32,348 bases of DNA from a virus (Duplodnaviria > Heunggongvirae > Uroviricota > Caudoviricetes), in the IMG/VR virus record IMGVR_UViG_2537562189_000010. One strand, written 5' to 3'. This document shows positions 23,193-28,592 of this stretch, in pieces. The notes under the pieces are model-generated. The model was not told the DNA's origin and searched no databases. It worked only from the letters and a program-made list of their open reading frames with translations. Position numbers and translations under genes: made by a program. Positions within the stretch are counted from its first letter, which is position 1. The number at the start of each line of letters is the position of its first letter.

Positions 23193-23593
23193 GGTGTGTT
23201 CCTTCTGTTGGCGGTTGAATGCACATAGCGGGCAATTGCCGCTTTGCGGTTAATTGTGACCAGTGTTCTGGTGAGTTCTGCGTTGTGTTTGTGTGCCTGC
23301 TCTTCGTGGTACTGCCGCATGATTTTTCCGGCAGGCGTGAGCGGCTCCGGCTCCCCGTGCGGACGGCGCGGACGAACGGCGACAAGCCAGCTGCGGTTAG
23401 TGCTGTCCGGTCGTCCGTTGAGTATGTCGGTGATGATGGCCGTGGTGGTGCGATCGGGACTGACGACTGTGATTTCCAGCTCATCGCCGGGTTGTGGTCC
23501 CGTGGCAATGTTGTTCAGGGTCAGTAAGGGCGTGCGCTGGCGCATCATTTCGTCAAAGCGCTGGCGCTGCATGGCGCAATAAAAGCGGGTCAT
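23189..23593 (-). CDS. hypothetical protein, 134 aa, translationally coupled to the replication gene
   Basis: Start codon overlaps the stop of the replication gene (ATGA); function unknown. Confidence 0.45.
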   Translation of the reverse strand: MTRFYCAMQRQRFDEMMRQRTPLLTLNNIATGPQPGDELEITVVSPDRTTTAIITDILNGRPDSTNRSWLVAVRPRRPHGEPEPLTPAGKIMRQYHEEQAHKHNAELTRTLVTINRKAAIARYVHSTANRRNTP

Positions 23594-26109
23594 TGTGGCG
23601 CCTCCGTATTCGGTGCGGGGGTGATATCAATGCGGCGGGTGCTGTCGTTCCAGTGCGCGGTGCGCCCGTCAGCCAGGCGCACGCGGGCACCGTGCCGGAC
23701 GGAAACGACGGCGCTTTCATGCAGCTGCACGCCCAGCGCATCAAGCTCGCGGGTGATTTGTGCGGTGATGTGTGGCTCAGCGGTCAGTGCGACACTCACG
23801 CGAACGCCGTCAGCGGGCGCACTGATGCCGCCGTTTTTCACGGTTTCCGTGTCAGGTGGCGGGTTTTTCAGCTGCCTGGTGAGTTGTTTTCGCTCTGTGG
23901 GGGTCAGTGACCTTAACCATTCACCCAAATCACCTTCAGGCAGGGTAAGTCGCTGCTCCCTGCGTTCGTCCGGCTGCCTTTCTGGCGGGTCGTTTATGGT
24001 CAGATTCTGGTCAGGGGGACAGTTATTGCCACGAGTCCAAGGTGCGGCAAAGCCGCACTCAACGTCAAAACCCTCGTCCGTGCGGTCTTCGTTTTCCGGC
24101 TTACGTCTGACCAGTTTCCAGGTGTCCGGGTGGGTGCATATGGTGTAGCGCTCCCCGAGTGACGGGGCGCGGACGCCGTAAATACGTTGCGGGAATTCGC
24201 CGTAGTCGTTGGCCTCTTCGGCAGTTTCGTATGCGGTGCGGACCAGGTACGTGTTGCGGGGAATGAGCACACCACCCTGGCGGGTGATATAGGTGGCAAA
24301 ACATCCCACGTCGGCGGCGGCCAGTATGGCGTCAATGTCGTCATGGTCCAGACGCTGCGGGGCAGCCGGGTTACGGGCCATCTGCCCGGCAAGGCGGCGG
24401 AGTTCGCGCCATACCTGGCGGGGCGGGATACCGAAGAACTGGAACTGGCGGATGCGGTGAAGGGCAGCCCAGCCGATGGCGTTCTCCACGGTTTCGGCCA
24501 TGGTTTTGCCTGATTCCTTATCGACGTAAGGTTTGCCGGTTTTCGGGTCATTCCCCATGAAGGCGCTGGCGTCCAGGTTCTTACCGATATAGGTCGCGAT
24601 ATAGCTCGCCGGTGTGCCTTTTGCCGGGTCGATTTTTTCGCATTTAAAACGCGGGGAGATATCATCACCCAGCTCTGCGCGGTCCTCCCTGATGGCGGCG
24701 TTGCGCATGATTTCAGTGATACGGGCTTCGTTTTCCGGGCTGGTGAATACCAGCATGTGCCAGTGCGGTGTACCGTCGTGGTGGGGCTCCACTGTGCGCA
24801 CGCCGTACCAGCCCAGCCCGGCCTTGTTGATGGCCCTGCGGACGGCGGCGAAAAAGCGGTAAACCAGATAATCACTGGCATCACGTACCGTTGCTCCGCA
24901 GTATTTCGGGTTCAGGCTGCCGTCATCGTTCACGCTGTGAAAACGGGAAGGGGCTGTGACGGTGACGAAAAACGCCAGGTCGCCGCGTGCTTCGGCGACC
25001 TGCTCCATTCCCCGGACGCAGGCCATCATCTCGTTACGGCGGTTACGCGGATTAGAGAGACCTGCCCAGTAGATATCCTCAAGGCTGAACCGTTCTCCTT
25101 CTTCGTTCTCGATGTCCCAGGCCTTCAGAAAATCGCGGGTGCGCTGGCGTTTTTCGCGCCAGTCCAGTAACGCTTCATGGCTGATATATACCGACGTCTT
25201 ACGTGACACCAGGCCTGCGGCGCGTAACAGCTCTTCACGCCAGATGTCCCGGAGGTGTCTTAACTGACTGTTCCACCATGTCGCACAGGAAAGGCGCATG
25301 ACCGCACCCGGCACCTGTTCCGGGTCGGGGGCGGTGCGGCGGTCGGGCCTGATTTCCAGCGACGGCCAGCAGGGTGGCGTGATACCCAGTTTTAACGCCA
25401 TGTGTGCCAGTGGCTGGTAGGTCAGTAACCAGGTGAACAGGTCATCGTCACCCCTGCCGGTCTTTTCGATGACCTCATCACATGCGCGCTCCAGTGCGGT
25501 GGAAAACGCGGTGGCGGTCAGGGTGGCAAGGCGCTGGATTTCGTCACGGCTCAGCTGCGGCAGCATAAGCAGTTCATCCAGCCGTTCGCGGGCGGCGGTG
25601 GCCTTAAAGGCCGGGGTGGCAAAGCGTTCATTCACACGGGCGATACGTTTCAGGCGGGCACGCAGCCCGTGACGAACGAAGTTATCCGCCGCGTATGCGC
25701 TGTTGTTCTTAAGCCCTTCCCGGCGTGCGCTCTCCTGTTTGCGGCTCAGGCGTGCCAGGTCCCGGATGAGCGGACCGGCAAGAAACGGCGGCAGGGCGCG
25801 CAGCTCCGCCATGGCTTCAGATACCAGTGTGGGCGGATTTTCGCGTTTGTGTCGCGCCAGTTTTTCCAGTCTGATCCGACGCTCTTCGTCGTGGTAAAGA
25901 TGCGAATTAATTCGCTTCCCTTCGTCTGTGGTTGTCAGAAAGGCGACGGTTTCTTCATCCAGTCTGGCGTCAGTGCGAATGTCCTCGTTGATGTAGCTCT
26001 GAATGGCCTGGCGTAATGCAGTTGGCTGTGCCCTGCCGAACGTTTCAGGATCGATAACCGGCAGCGGGGCGTTCCACGGGTACGCCAGTTGTGCGTTATG
26101 GTCGCTCAT
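23590..26109 (-). CDS. A: rolling-circle replication initiator, HUH endonuclease (P2 gpA-like)
   Basis: About 839 aa from the first ATG (ORF track 23590..26118); contains ...GTPHWHMLVF..., the HUH metal-binding motif of P2 A / phiX174 A-type initiators. Confidence 0.85.
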   Translation of the reverse strand: MSDHNAQLAYPWNAPLPVIDPETFGRAQPTALRQAIQSYINEDIRTDARLDEETVAFLTTTDEGKRINSHLYHDEERRIRLEKLARHKRENPPTLVSEAMAELRALPPFLAGPLIRDLARLSRKQESARREGLKNNSAYAADNFVRHGLRARLKRIARVNERFATPAFKATAARERLDELLMLPQLSRDEIQRLATLTATAFSTALERACDEVIEKTGRGDDDLFTWLLTYQPLAHMALKLGITPPCWPSLEIRPDRRTAPDPEQVPGAVMRLSCATWWNSQLRHLRDIWREELLRAAGLVSRKTSVYISHEALLDWREKRQRTRDFLKAWDIENEEGERFSLEDIYWAGLSNPRNRRNEMMACVRGMEQVAEARGDLAFFVTVTAPSRFHSVNDDGSLNPKYCGATVRDASDYLVYRFFAAVRRAINKAGLGWYGVRTVEPHHDGTPHWHMLVFTSPENEARITEIMRNAAIREDRAELGDDISPRFKCEKIDPAKGTPASYIATYIGKNLDASAFMGNDPKTGKPYVDKESGKTMAETVENAIGWAALHRIRQFQFFGIPPRQVWRELRRLAGQMARNPAAPQRLDHDDIDAILAAADVGCFATYITRQGGVLIPRNTYLVRTAYETAEEANDYGEFPQRIYGVRAPSLGERYTICTHPDTWKLVRRKPENEDRTDEGFDVECGFAAPWTRGNNCPPDQNLTINDPPERQPDERREQRLTLPEGDLGEWLRSLTPTERKQLTRQLKNPPPDTETVKNGGISAPADGVRVSVALTAEPHITAQITRELDALGVQLHESAVVSVRHGARVRLADGRTAHWNDSTRRIDITPAPNTEAPQ

Positions 26110-26522
26110 GCGTCGCACTCCCCGGCAGTTGCCGCCTGAAACGCCGCGCGGTACAGCACGAGAAGGCGCTGGTATTCACCGATAAAGTCTTCTGCGGTGT
26201 ATATGCCTTTCACGGCCACGCTGTGCGTTGTCATTTCCAGAACCAGCGCCATTTCTGACGACGACCAGCTGATGGCGGTGCTGTCGGTTCCGTTGATGTG
26301 AAATAAACCAAAGCCATCACCATCGCCTTTTACGTCCACGCGGTAACGGTCGTCAACGGTGAAGGAGAAATCCCCGTATGTGGTGACGCGTCCGGCGGCC
26401 TGTTTACAGGCGCGGCGGTAATAGTCGTGCCAGTCGTTCAGGCGGGAAGCCAGCCGGGGATCCACTGCCCACATCCAGTTAAAAAAATCCTGAATATCTG
26501 AAAGTCCCTTAACGCTCTTCAT
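26106..26522 (-). CDS. hypothetical protein, 138 aa, directly upstream of and coupled to the replication gene
   Basis: ATG preceded by GGAGG; its stop overlaps the replication gene ATG; its ribosome-binding site lies at the boundary of the tandem repeat. Confidence 0.5.
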   Translation of the reverse strand: MKSVKGLSDIQDFFNWMWAVDPRLASRLNDWHDYYRRACKQAAGRVTTYGDFSFTVDDRYRVDVKGDGDGFGLFHINGTDSTAISWSSSEMALVLEMTTHSVAVKGIYTAEDFIGEYQRLLVLYRAAFQAATAGECDA

Positions 26523-26590
26523 GAGAACCTCCGGTAACAGACGTGCGGAAGCCTCCCGCGCACGTGTGCGGGATGGCTTCAGGATGTTGT

Positions 26591-26818
26591 TTAGTGGTGG
26601 TGTTGCTGGTTGATAAGGTCCTGCAGTTCTGCCAGGTCTTCGGCCAGATAGCTGAAGACTGCCGCGTAATACCCGGCAGCGATACCGTCGTTAAGTCGGT
26701 GTAATACGTTTGACTGCATGATGAAGGAGACAGATGCAGCCCGATGGAGTCTGCGGTTGATTTCTGTGCGGATGTGAAGACGCTCAGCGCGGGCGCGCTG
26801 TTGTTTGCGGTTTGCCAT
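26591..26818 (-). CDS. 75-aa Arg-rich protein, copy 1 (unknown function; candidate RNA-controlled effector)
   Basis: Identical in protein sequence to copy 2 despite synonymous nucleotide changes; AAGAGG Shine-Dalgarno; basic N-terminus, acidic C-terminus ending in HHH. Confidence 0.7.
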   Translation of the reverse strand: MANRKQQRARAERLHIRTEINRRLHRAASVSFIMQSNVLHRLNDGIAAGYYAAVFSYLAEDLAELQDLINQQHHH

Positions 26819-27132
26819 GGTGTTTGGCCTCTTGTAGTAAGTTGTGAAAACTCACCAACCCGAGGCGGTAATCTCAGGGTGGCGAGACGTACAGGGTTAC
26901 CACAACCGGCTACAAGAGATCCCGGCCCGACCGAAGTCGGCCCCGTACGCCCCGCCATAATTCTGACGCAAAAAAGACGTGGCGATACAGTACGCACAAA
27001 AAAACCGCTGGCGCGGTTGTGCGCTCTTGTAGTCGGCGGGGTGGTAATCCCGGCACCCGTTTTATGAGGTGCGGGAAAACTGTAACCCGACCAGGCGAAC
27101 GCTGGCAAGCGGTTTTTTTGTGTGTGCATGGA
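26819..27132 (-). ncRNA. structured leader / antisense-type regulatory RNA region, copy 1 (c4/CI-like architecture)
   Basis: CTCTTGTAG (about 26829-26837) and again (about 27024-27032) are each the reverse complement of CTACAAGAG (about 26911-26919); GGTAA/TTACC inner pairing; minus-strand hairpin plus T7 terminator; UUCG-loop hairpin. Confidence 0.5.
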
Positions 27133-27202
27133 GAACGAACCTCCGGTAACAGACGTGCGGAAGCCTCCCGCGCACGGGTGCGGGATGGCTTCAGGATGTT
27201 GT

Positions 27203-27430
27203 TTAGTGGTGGTGTTGCTGGTTGATAAGGTCCTGCAGTTCTGCCAGGTCTTCGGCCAGATAGCTGAAGACTGCCGCGTAATACCCGGCAGCGATACCGT
27301 CGTTAAGTCGGTGTAATACGTTTGACTGCATGATGAAGGAGACAGATGCAGCCCGATGGAGTCTGCGGTTGATTTCAGTCCGGATGTGAAGACGCTCAGC
27401 GCGGGCGCGCTGTTGCTTGCGGTTTGCCAT
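27203..27430 (-). CDS. 75-aa Arg-rich protein, copy 2
   Basis: Same protein as copy 1; the only nucleotide differences are AAA/AAG (Lys), CGC/CGG (Arg) and ACA/ACT (Thr). Confidence 0.7.
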   Translation of the reverse strand: MANRKQQRARAERLHIRTEINRRLHRAASVSFIMQSNVLHRLNDGIAAGYYAAVFSYLAEDLAELQDLINQQHHH

Positions 27431-27745
27431 GGTGTGGCCTCTTGTGTAGTAAGTTTTGAAAACTCACCATCCAGAGGTTGCAATTCTGGGTGGTGAGACG
27501 TACAGGGTTGCAACCACCGGCTACACAAGACCCCGGCCCGACCGAAGTCGGCCCTGTACGCCCCACCATAATTCTGACGCGAAAAAGATGTGACGATGCG
27601 GTACGCACAAAAAAACCGCTGGCGCGGTTGTGCGCTTGTGTAGTCAGCGGGGGTTGCAATCCCGGCACCCGTTTTATGAGGTGCGGGAAAACTGTAACCC
27701 GACCAGGCGAACGCTGGCAAGCGGTTTTTTTGTGTGTGCATGTTC
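27431..27745 (-). ncRNA. structured leader / antisense-type regulatory RNA region, copy 2
   Basis: Segments CTTGTGTAG...GGTTGCAAT (about 27441-27485 and 27635-27660) are both complementary to GGTTGCAACC...CTACACAAG (about 27507-27529); the Shine-Dalgarno of the ORF lies inside the downstream segment; terminator (about 27609-27635) and UUCG hairpin (about 27535-27554) on the minus strand. Confidence 0.5.
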
Positions 27746-27752
27746 TGGTTTC

Positions 27753-28052
27753 TTACTGGTTCAGAAAAAAATCAAAAACCTTGTCAATGCGTTGCAGTAG
27801 CTCTTGCTGTATTGCTTCCGGCGTTTCCGGTTCACCTGGCGCCTCCAACGTCGCGCAGAAATCAGCGATTTCATGATGGAGCGCCAGGCGAATGGCAGGA
27901 GCCGTGGTTCTGGCGTGCTCCAGCTCATCCAGCAGTGCCAGCACAGCAGACGGCGAGAGCATTGCGCGAAATGCCAGTAATTTTTGAGGCGTTGCCATTC
28001 GTTGCAGGGCAAATGCCAGTTCGCGTAGCTTCTGGTGGTTGATGGTGCTCAT
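27753..28052 (-). CDS. hypothetical protein, 99 aa; paralogue of the 28341..28592 product
   Basis: C-terminal ...ADFCATLEAPGEPETPEAIQQELLQRIDKVFDF aligns with ...DDFTATLSGPGAPVTPGEIHRDLKRRIENAIDY of the other ORF. Confidence 0.5.
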   Translation of the reverse strand: MSTINHQKLRELAFALQRMATPQKLLAFRAMLSPSAVLALLDELEHARTTAPAIRLALHHEIADFCATLEAPGEPETPEAIQQELLQRIDKVFDFFLNQ

Positions 28053-28315
28053 GCTCTGGCTTCCTTCAGTAGCTGGTTAAACATGTGAGTAAGTGGATTG
28101 CTACACCCGAACGGCATCGGGTTTACGTGGTAAGAAGCCCGGCCTCCTGTTTTGCGAGCGCGACCACCTGTGCTGCGGTTTGTTCTGATGACTAAGCCAC
28201 CGCGCCAGAGTCGGCGTAACTCAGCATTAATGGCTGTGGTCTGGGTATTCAGTGCCGTGGCGATTTCACTTCCGCTGCACCCCGGATTGGCTGCGATGTA
28301 GTCTAGAATGGTCAT
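28049..28315 (-). CDS. small winged-helix DNA-binding protein, 88 aa
   Basis: ILDYIAANPGCSGSEIATALNTQTTAINAELRRLWRGGLVIR looks like a helix-turn-helix with a wing; coupled to the downstream gene. Confidence 0.5.
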   Translation of the reverse strand: MTILDYIAANPGCSGSEIATALNTQTTAINAELRRLWRGGLVIRTNRSTGGRARKTGGRASYHVNPMPFGCSNPLTHMFNQLLKEARA

Positions 28316-28340
28316 CGTGAGATCTCCTTTGCAGTTCCGG

Positions 28341-28592
28341 TTATTCAGTCGGGTTCAGGGTGTAATCAATGGCGTTTTCAATACGGCGTTTAAGGTCCCG
28401 GTGGATCTCACCTGGTGTTACTGGTGCGCCCGGACCGCTCAGCGTTGCCGTGAAGTCGTCGATTTCCTCCAGTAACAGATTGCGGAGTACGGCGATGTGG
28501 TGGCGTGCGTCTTTACCGGGTTTACGTGCGTTGGTGGTGTACTTGCTGATCATGGCCGCAGCTCTCCGTGGGCTTGTGTTTCTGATTTCCAT
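28341..28592 (-). CDS. hypothetical protein, paralogue of the 99-aa ORF; likely start at Met14 (about 28553, coupled to the upstream stop)
   Basis: Shares a C-terminal domain with 27753..28052; the internal ATG overlaps the stop of the upstream ORF. Confidence 0.45.
   Translation of the reverse strand: MEIRNTSPRRAAAMISKYTTNARKPGKDARHHIAVLRNLLLEEIDDFTATLSGPGAPVTPGEIHRDLKRRIENAIDYTLNPTE

Follow-up and report, generated by a model that had tools for sequence, protein, structure and literature searches.

We analyzed a 32,348-nt stretch of viral DNA (IMG/VR record IMGVR_UViG_2537562189_000010; hereafter the window) and identified a 612-bp direct tandem duplication at positions 26518-27741, with all of its functional parts on the minus strand. 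Each of the two units contained, in 5' to 3' order, a promoter, an isrK/seqA-type leader with a terminator, a C4/CI-type RNA, a 55-nt spacer and a 75-aa ORF. An initial annotation had placed the feature at 27431-27745; this interval corresponds to the leader of the upstream unit (unit 2), while the whole feature takes in both units. The parts of the locus are listed below, with the boxes given as minus-strand RNA in plus-strand coordinates.

Unit 2 (upstream)
27691-27720, minus strand: promoter (-35 TTGCCA, 18-nt spacer, -10 TACAGT); the predicted start, 27684, is the first base of the isrK match
27609-27684, minus strand: isrK / P4 seqA-type leader RNA (RF01394, 59.6 bits), with a terminator hairpin at 27614-27629 and a U7 run
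27652-27659, minus strand: box a1, UUGCAACC, in the loop of leader hairpin 2
27635-27643, minus strand: box b1, CUACACAAG, in the single-stranded linker of the leader
27486-27573, minus strand: C4/CI-type antisense RNA (RF01695, 78.0 bits, model positions 1-87 of 87; fold -50.1 kcal/mol, z = -5.8)
27521-27529, minus strand: box b', CUUGUGUAG, in the 12-nt hairpin loop of C4
27508-27515, minus strand: box a', GGUUGCAA, in the unpaired stretch 3' of the b' hairpin
27431-27485, minus strand: target region with a2, b2 and the Shine-Dalgarno sequence AAGAGG (27438-27443), which overlaps b2
27476-27483, minus strand: box a2, UUGCAACC
27441-27449, minus strand: box b2, CUACACAAG, with the AGG of the Shine-Dalgarno sequence directly after it, 12 nt before the ATG at 27430
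27203-27430, minus strand: effector gene, 75 aa, a homologue of P4 epsilon ('derepression') by Pfam PF25738, BLASTP and hhalign

Junction between the units
27123-27147, minus strand: tandem junction, where GGAGGTTCGTTCTCC is joined to ATGCACACAC

Unit 1 (downstream)
27079-27108, minus strand: promoter, with hexamers as in unit 2
26998-27072, minus strand: isrK/seqA-type leader RNA (RF01394, 65.0 bits), with a terminator hairpin at 27003-27018
27041-27047, minus strand: box a1, UUACCAC
27024-27032, minus strand: box b1, CUACAAGAG
26875-26962, minus strand: C4/CI-type antisense RNA (RF01695, 80.4 bits, model positions 1-87 of 87; z = -4.7)
26910-26918, minus strand: box b', CUCUUGUAG
26897-26903, minus strand: box a', GUGGUAA
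26819-26874, minus strand: target region with a2 and b2
26865-26871, minus strand: box a2, UUACCGC, with one G-U pair to a'
26829-26837, minus strand: box b2, CUACAAGAG, overlapping the Shine-Dalgarno sequence
26591-26818, minus strand: effector gene, 75 aa, with three synonymous differences from unit 2 near the 5' end

Genes after the units
23590-26522, minus strand: a 138-aa ORF (26106-26522) and the gpA replication endonuclease gene (23590-26118), reachable only by transcription through the units

The element that carries the duplication was found to be a complete P2-type helper-like phage with gpA, portal, terminase, Cox, C and integrase. Small early genes lay 5' of the units, followed by Cox, an HTH repressor and the integrase. 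The genes after the units matched Pfam Phage_GPA (356 bits, gpA) and PHROG 3237; the small ORFs fell only into PHROGs families with no assigned function, and had no match in NCBIfam. The closest annotated relatives were the P88-like phages (Xuanwuvirus, Peduoviridae) and Citrobacter phage PhiSM, in which the 75-aa ORF is named 'derepression protein'. Among complete genomes, the nearest was that of E. coli O22:H8 strain 154, which was 98.8% identical over 12 kb and had one unit only. A unit was matched in more than 1250 of the 5426 complete E. coli genomes, about a quarter. When the region 26000-28400 was scanned for promoters, those of the two units were the sole sigma-70-like sites, and no other promoter was detected there for the 138-aa ORF or gene A. 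The promoter hexamers were invariant across 44 homologues while the spacer varied. The LexA box CTGT-N8-ACAG was absent from the whole window, which does not fit an SOS-controlled antirepressor of the 186 Tum type. The duplication probably lies within the early operon of an E. coli prophage of the P88-like type (Xuanwuvirus, P2-family), and each of its units is probably a P4/P1-type antisense-RNA immunity cassette.

Both RNAs of each unit are members of Rfam families, with scores above the gathering cut-offs of 50 bits for isrK (RF01394) and 45 bits for C4 (RF01695). In addition to its score, the leader RNA had two 5' hairpins, a linker, a Rho-independent terminator (a G+C hairpin with a U7 run) and its own promoter in both units. 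In the C4 RNA a long closing stem enclosed two hairpins, the second of which had b' in its loop and was followed on the 3' side by the unpaired a'; in unit 1 the minimum-energy fold of this RNA was the Rfam consensus structure. Downstream lay the a2/b2 targets, and b2 was located at the first ORF's ribosome-binding site, such that the duplex with C4 would end inside AAGAGG. The third relevant family, c4-a1b1 (RF03163), had no match in 26400-27800 even at E <= 1. The a1/b1 boxes exist here despite this result, but within an isrK-type scaffold; P4 itself scored only 44.1 bits with RF03163 against a cut-off of 46.7. When the whole leader of unit 1 was folded, a1:a' and b1:b' were paired in cis in both the minimum-energy and the centroid structures. 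For unit 2, the centroid structure had the same cis pairs, whereas the minimum-energy fold kept C4 folded. Since the predicted folds differed by method and by unit, the leader appears to have two conformers of similar energy, a situation known from structures A and B of IsrK. An anti-Shine-Dalgarno sequence, CCUCU, adjoins a2 and can pair with the Shine-Dalgarno sequence in the predicted folds.

The complementary strings quoted in the initial annotation were all present at their places when read on the minus strand. To estimate how often such complementarity arises by chance, we counted the k-mers that had a reverse complement both upstream and downstream within the 315-nt leader, and compared the counts with 2000 dinucleotide shuffles. 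For k = 7, 8 and 9, the counts were 5, 3 and 1 in unit 2 and 3, 2 and 1 in unit 1, while the shuffle means were 0.05, 0.002 and 0. The observed counts were matched in none of the 2000 shuffles. The b boxes did not occur elsewhere in the 32-kb window. We then aligned unit 1 with unit 2 and, with seven columns at the end of the repeat left out of the count, found 39 differing columns, 35 of which fell between a1 and b2. The remaining differences were three synonymous changes in the ORF and one change in a hairpin 3' of the ORF; the promoter, the first isrK hairpin and the terminator had none. The flanks were nearly identical (no differences over 84 nt upstream and one over ~240 nt downstream) while the core from a1 to b2 was 16% different. 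It had been claimed earlier that the copies differ in all three segments at once with pairing preserved, and this held true for both sets of boxes. In the a1/a'/a2 triple, three positions per box differed between the units and pairing was retained. In the b triple, two to three positions differed in b1 and b', b2 shifted with the adjacent spacing, and pairing was again retained. Changes in the small hairpin that presents a2 also preserved pairing between the units, and in the closing stem of C4 a U-A pair of one unit was a C-G pair in the other.

The initial annotation had proposed a search for covariation in a wider alignment, and this search gave clear covariation (98-99% of the cells paired and 10-11 pairs changed on both sides). 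We gathered 64 related loci with the 75-aa protein, all of them single-copy, and the covariation alignment consisted of 44 leaders, 42 of them distinct. For the 16 pairs of a1b1 with C4, 99.1% of the cells were paired, 11 pairs had changes in both partners, and a single position had as many as five pair types. The covariation score of 0.72 was reached in none of 500 shuffles (0.13 in shuffles), and when the partner was slid by 1-3 columns just 30-52% of the cells paired. Similarly, for the 17 pairs of C4 with a2b2, 97.9% of the cells were paired and 10 pairs had changed on both sides, with a score of 0.69 relative to 0.13. The a and b boxes would be specificity determinants, and they co-vary in all three places. 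Among 84 units (49 distinct leaders) there were 26 combinations, made up of 7 a alleles and 16 b alleles, indicating independent assortment of the two boxes. All 7 positions of a' were paired with a2 in every leader, while a1 was mismatched in three evident recombinants, suggesting that the downstream target is under the tighter constraint.

The proteins encoded by the two units were identical, in agreement with the earlier statement that a single effector serves both. The 75-aa protein belongs to the epsilon family, although its margin in Pfam was slim (PF25738, 29.1 bits against a cut-off of 27). Comparison with P4 epsilon by BLASTP gave 36% identity over 50 aa (E = 4e-9), and profile-profile alignment with hhalign gave a probability of 93.7% (E = 1.8e-7). 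When the protein was searched by tblastn against the phage collection, only nine records were found, all of them P88-like or PhiSM; since P4 was not among these, pairwise and profile comparisons were required to establish the homology to P4 epsilon. All the database relatives carry the name 'derepression protein'. P4 epsilon, an antirepressor, binds to the C repressor of P2 (PMC2995052), and by analogy the 75-aa protein would be an antirepressor acting on the C repressor of the prophage. Sp13, a P2-like prophage of O157 Sakai, has an epsilon-like gene and is inducible by mitomycin though its repressor has no cleavage motif; the gene was noted in 2009 and proposed as the cause of this inducibility (PMC2669165). 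A 75-aa family that is prevalent in P4-like satellites (PMC8628076) had no link to this ORF, as the sole tblastn match in 80 P4-like loci was epsilon itself. A scan of genome contigs with the 75-aa protein returned two loci only, one of which was labelled Vagococcus and is probably contamination.

The immunity region of P4 has the order PLE - seqA - CI RNA/seqB - seqC - kil - epsilon - orf151 - cnr - alpha, and we take the 65-aa ORF that follows CI and precedes epsilon to be kil. The c4/CI-type architecture suggested for the window was supported by this comparison, since P4 gave isrK and C4 matches in the same order upstream of epsilon, with its seqA region scoring 60.8 bits on RF01394. As in the units of the window, a2 and b2 of P4 lie immediately 3' of the CI RNA, and the P4 b2 box (UUCACAGG-AGG) shares bases with the Shine-Dalgarno sequence of the ORF that comes next. 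P4 also resembles the window in having a replication gene downstream in the same operon, a homologous effector and combinatorial a'/b' alleles. On the other hand, P4 is a satellite while the window element is a complete P2-type helper-like phage, and the replication protein is gpA here and the alpha primase in P4. There is no kil ORF in the window, so translation begins with the epsilon-like gene itself (75 aa, compared with 95 aa in P4), which starts 55 nt after C4. In addition, the unit is present twice here, with two specificities. The 138-aa ORF had no similarity to P4 orf151.

The immI region of P1/P7 (c4 - icd - ant1/2) shares with the window the arrangement of a1/b1, c4 (with b' and a') and a2/b2, the Rfam C4 family, a small first ORF with b2 at its ribosome-binding site, and an antirepressor output. 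In these phages small sequence changes set heteroimmunity (PMC12197685, PMC6906374). The effectors, however, are unrelated: the first ORF here is a PF25738 protein and not Icd, and it is followed by the 138-aa ORF and gpA, with no Ant-like gene. The window has an isrK/seqA-type leader that ends in a terminator of its own, and the host phage belongs to a different family. In the Gifsy-1 locus of Salmonella (isrK - orf45/STnc1160 - anrP), the same two RNA families occur in the same order with an antirepressor output. In structure IsrK is homologous to P4 SeqA, and STnc1160, which lies downstream of it, is similar to CI; the antirepressor AnrP is under the control of this locus, and the cis pairing between the leader and the C4-like RNA was confirmed by compensatory mutations (PMC4825925). 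The Gifsy-1 leader likewise has its own promoter and a terminator with partial read-through, and the conformer with cis a1b1:a'b' pairing is inactive (PMC4825925). AnrP, in contrast, is a different protein that is translationally coupled through orf45, and the Gifsy-1 locus is single-copy in a lambdoid prophage. The epsilon-like genes of Sp13 and P88/PhiSM are of the same family and phage group as the window, at single-copy loci; neither the RNA part nor the allelic diversity of such loci was discussed in the literature searched. Each unit is thus a member of a curated and experimentally studied family, and the cassette as such is well known. The recurrent tandem arrangement with two specificities and the extent of allelic assortment in P2-type prophages appear to be undescribed in the literature searched.

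We consider the most likely mechanism to be one in which the C4 RNA would block translation of the antirepressor. Transcription from a constitutive promoter would first produce ~76 nt that contain a1 and b1 and extend to the intrinsic terminator (the isrK/seqA-type RNA). Most transcripts would stop at this terminator, and read-through would yield the C4/CI RNA, which is probably excised as a stable RNA of ~88 nt with b' in a hairpin loop and a' in the adjacent unpaired stretch. The a' and b' boxes would pair with a2 and b2 just downstream, and since b2 overlaps the Shine-Dalgarno sequence this pairing would block translation of the 75-aa epsilon-like antirepressor. With the first ORF left untranslated, polarity would probably lower the expression of the 138-aa ORF and replication gene A as well. 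The a1/b1 leader, working in cis or as a short trans-acting RNA, may compete for the C4 surfaces that the targets use, and could thereby tune or relieve the block. The short leader RNA may aid termination, a role suggested for P4, or may be a sponge or activator of the kind seen in Gifsy-1. The analysis itself establishes that both RNAs and the protein belong to their families, that the boxes co-vary in three places and that the tandem recurs; we infer the RNA processing, the trans action, the translational block, the polarity and the target of the antirepressor from P1, P4 and Gifsy-1.

A possible though less favored reading is that a1b1 locks the read-through mRNA in cis and that the short a1/b1 RNA activates antirepressor translation in trans, with C4 having mainly a structural role. 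This is what was shown with compensatory mutants for the homologous Gifsy-1 locus, where the trans-acting RNA is the short IsrK bearing a1/b1, an activator, and where repression by the C4-like STnc1160 was not demonstrated (PMC4825925). The cis pairing of a1:a' and b1:b' predicted for the full leaders, in unit 1 by both methods and in unit 2 in the centroid, also agrees with it. In P1/P7 and P4, however, the processed C4/CI RNA is the trans-acting immunity factor (PMC12197685). Moreover, a':a2 and b':b2 at the Shine-Dalgarno sequence were kept more strictly than a1/b1, and a model with an activator only does not call for this stricter retention. Activation of the IsrK type and repression by C4 are not mutually exclusive. 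We consider it improbable that the region is a purely cis-acting leader or attenuator that switches between folds and makes no small RNA for trans action. The nearly isoenergetic alternative folds and the CCUCU sequence next to a2 would suit such a switch, but it has no need for 26 allele combinations with strict three-way matching, a pattern that is the signature of specificity in trans, as in P1/P7 heteroimmunity; the C4 fold is also a stable autonomous domain (z = -4.7 to -5.8). It is very improbable that the region is protein-coding, whether as an 'ash family protein' or as the 410-aa ORF at 26509-27741, in which case coding constraints would account for the repeats, or that the tandem is an assembly artefact. 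The 410-aa ORF does cover both units, and PGAP calls 'ash family protein' pseudogenes over homologous leaders, with a Phage_ASH match that is below threshold. However, the 410-aa ORF had no Pfam match, its ATG was not conserved and indels in the homologues break the frame, while the variation was compensatory at the RNA level and, in P4, the ORF matched by Phage_ASH lies over the CI RNA. As for an artefact, the same junction was reproduced in independent complete genomes, which shows that the tandem is not one.

The tandem recurs outside the window. The junction was absent from single-copy relatives, and we found the identical junction in five other E. coli assemblies (strain Bongo, L151, L153, L154 and L156). 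For this search a 56-nt query covering the junction only was used, as single-copy genomes match both halves of a longer query 606 bp apart. Strain Bongo was the one genome with the junction among 5426 complete RefSeq E. coli genomes, while four further junction-bearing NCBI assemblies, CP027484.1 among them, were found through the exact protein. Neither the exact junction nor a generic tandem pattern, validated on the window and L068, was found in IMG/VR or JGI metagenomes. The alleles of the arrays were as follows.

Window and L156: upstream unit a GCAAC, b CTACACAAG; downstream unit a ACCAC, b CTACAAGAG
L151 and L154: upstream unit a GCAAC, b CTACACAAG; downstream unit a GCAAC, b TCAACAAAG
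L153: upstream unit a GCAAC, b CTACACAAG; downstream unit a GGAAC, b CTAGCAAAG
Bongo: upstream unit a GGAAC, b CTACGCACG; downstream unit a CGCAG, b CTAGCAAAG

These arrays amount to five allele-pair instances, in which the window and L156 are counted as separate instances of one pair since the protein of the upstream unit differs between them by one residue. The shared junction shows that both units descend from one duplication event, which persisted while the a1-to-b2 cassettes were swapped by recombination. It is likely that the tandem prophage makes two C4 specificities, each of which guards a copy of the same antirepressor.

Whether the two specificities serve the phage is a separate matter. 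The tandem may be a neutral and short-lived product of unequal recombination between two heteroimmune phages, with no function for its two specificities, and we give this reading some weight without preferring it. The nearly identical flanks around a core that is 16% different are a signature of recombination, and the rarity of the junction among complete genomes and its absence from the IMG/VR and JGI metagenomes count in its favor as well. Against this, five allele-pair instances with the same junction indicate that the tandem outlasted several cassette exchanges, and it persists despite ~300 nt of perfect direct repeat that should collapse the array. In addition, the b alleles of the two units differed in every array seen (all five pairs), and in the window the promoters, RNAs and ORFs were intact in both units, the ORF differences being synonymous. 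We also considered, as a speculative and rather unlikely proposal, that P2-type phages are engaged in an RNA-coded arms race in which stacked cassettes are adaptive as a 'two-key' strategy, which would be the benefit of stacking. If so, the two C4 RNAs of a resident tandem would silence the epsilon-type antirepressors of invaders of either specificity, and an invading tandem could still express its antirepressor unless the resident had both keys. Such a strategy would explain why the b alleles differ in every array and why the arrays survive despite their long perfect repeats. As a corollary, P4 satellites and helper-type phages would use one homologous immunity-plus-epsilon cassette and may contest the same repressor, with RNA locks of one kind on both sides.

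The two units had been described as two independent RNA locks, and this was upheld in part. The a boxes paired with their own partners at -8 to -12 kcal/mol in silico and with those of the other unit at about -3 to -3.6 kcal/mol, and thus look orthogonal in these calculations. The b boxes, on the other hand, cross-paired: the b' loop of the unit 2 C4 paired with b2 of unit 1 at -14.6 kcal/mol, compared with -13.6 kcal/mol for unit 1's own C4, suggesting that the two locks may not be independent. The earlier speculation that the module could act on a P4-like satellite found no support. The 80 P4-like loci, which have nearly identical epsilon genes, showed combinatorial diversity of their own, with 3 alleles of a' and at least 7 of b'; they had no b allele in common with the P88-like set, and comparison of the two sets gave no evidence of helper-satellite cross-talk. 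One P4-like a' allele, UUUCCAC, is the complement of the P88-like a' allele GUGGAAA, a match that is within chance since only 3-4 positions vary.

These observations make P4-type RNA immunity with an epsilon antirepressor a standard part of widespread helper-type E. coli prophages, and offer a candidate explanation for the induction of P88/Sp13-like phages that have no cleavable repressor. At least 26 matched RNA key/lock combinations, in which the three-way covariation is near-perfect, make the alleles a natural library that could be used for dissecting the role of a1/b1 (seqA, IsrK) and as a source of orthogonal riboregulators. The recurrent two-specificity tandems provide a simple system for asking whether antisense-RNA immunity faces diversifying selection. 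For annotation, an 'ash family protein' (PF10554) call at these loci represents the translation of an RNA gene, and studies that take PF10554 as a marker of epsilon actually detect the CI/C4 RNA locus.

In the P4-like elements (L070-L149, from IMG/VR), three a' alleles and at least seven b' loop alleles of the antisense RNA occurred in 13 combinations, while the epsilon genes of these elements were 97-99% identical. The a'/b' alleles follow the same combinatorial specificity pattern in P4-like elements as in P88-like phages. In three related loci (L007, L021 and L031), the a1 box of the leader was mismatched to the C4 RNA of the same locus while a2 and b2 were matched; b1 was likewise mismatched in L021. 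These loci resemble products of recombination in which the crossover fell after the leader terminator and before C4, and as natural a1/b1-mismatch mutants they could reveal the purpose of a1/b1. The a' box of unit 2 together with its flanks forms a perfect palindrome, GGUUGCAACC (window 27506-27515), through which the unit 2 C4 could pair with itself and the a1 target could pair with the a2 target.

Pairing within the transcript was also predicted at the target. A conserved CCUCU lies directly 3' of a2 and can pair with the AGAGG Shine-Dalgarno sequence in the predicted folds of the following target regions:
Window 27436-27475, minus strand, CCUCU and Shine-Dalgarno target region
Window 26824-26863, minus strand, CCUCU and Shine-Dalgarno target region
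Besides C4, this pairing may therefore hide the ribosome-binding site in cis.

We noted in both units that ACACACAAAAAAACCGCUUGC, just 5' of the -35 hexamer, is complementary at 19 of 21 positions to the leader terminator, over its 3' arm and U tract:
Window 27717-27737 with 27603-27623, unit 2, upstream segment and terminator partner
Window 27105-27125 with 26992-27012, unit 1, upstream segment and terminator partner
For transcripts starting 5' of the promoter, this long helix (z = -4.6 and -6.6) was predicted to replace the terminator, while the terminator was predicted to form in transcripts from the predicted start site. The long helix could allow early-operon read-through past the leader terminator; equally, the A tract upstream of the -35 hexamer may be a promoter UP element and nothing more. 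A search of the whole 32-kb window for a LexA box (CTGT-N8-ACAG) found none. If DNA damage induces this prophage, as it does P88 and Sp13, no promoter under LexA control inside the window is the point of entry for the signal.

Several reading frames overlie the RNA genes:
Window 26509-27741, minus strand, 410-aa ORF through both units
Window 27396-27668, minus strand, 90-aa ORF over unit 2, sub-threshold Phage_ASH match
L066 8168-8584, minus strand, P4 'cI ORF137' over the CI RNA, full Phage_ASH match (59.7 bits)
A Pfam search of the 410-aa ORF gave no match, and its start codon was not kept among homologues. Judging by the Phage_ASH matches of these ORFs, what PF10554 and the PGAP label 'ash family protein' pick out appears to be the C4/CI RNA gene in translated form. 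PF10554 served as the 'epsilon' marker in a published satellite survey (PMC8628076).

Among the loci collected for comparison, L002, titled Vagococcus sp., carries a P88-like cassette of E. coli type; contamination of the assembly is the probable cause. For L006, the underlying IMG/VR contig terminates in Illumina adapter sequence (AGATCGGAAGAGCACACGTCTG).
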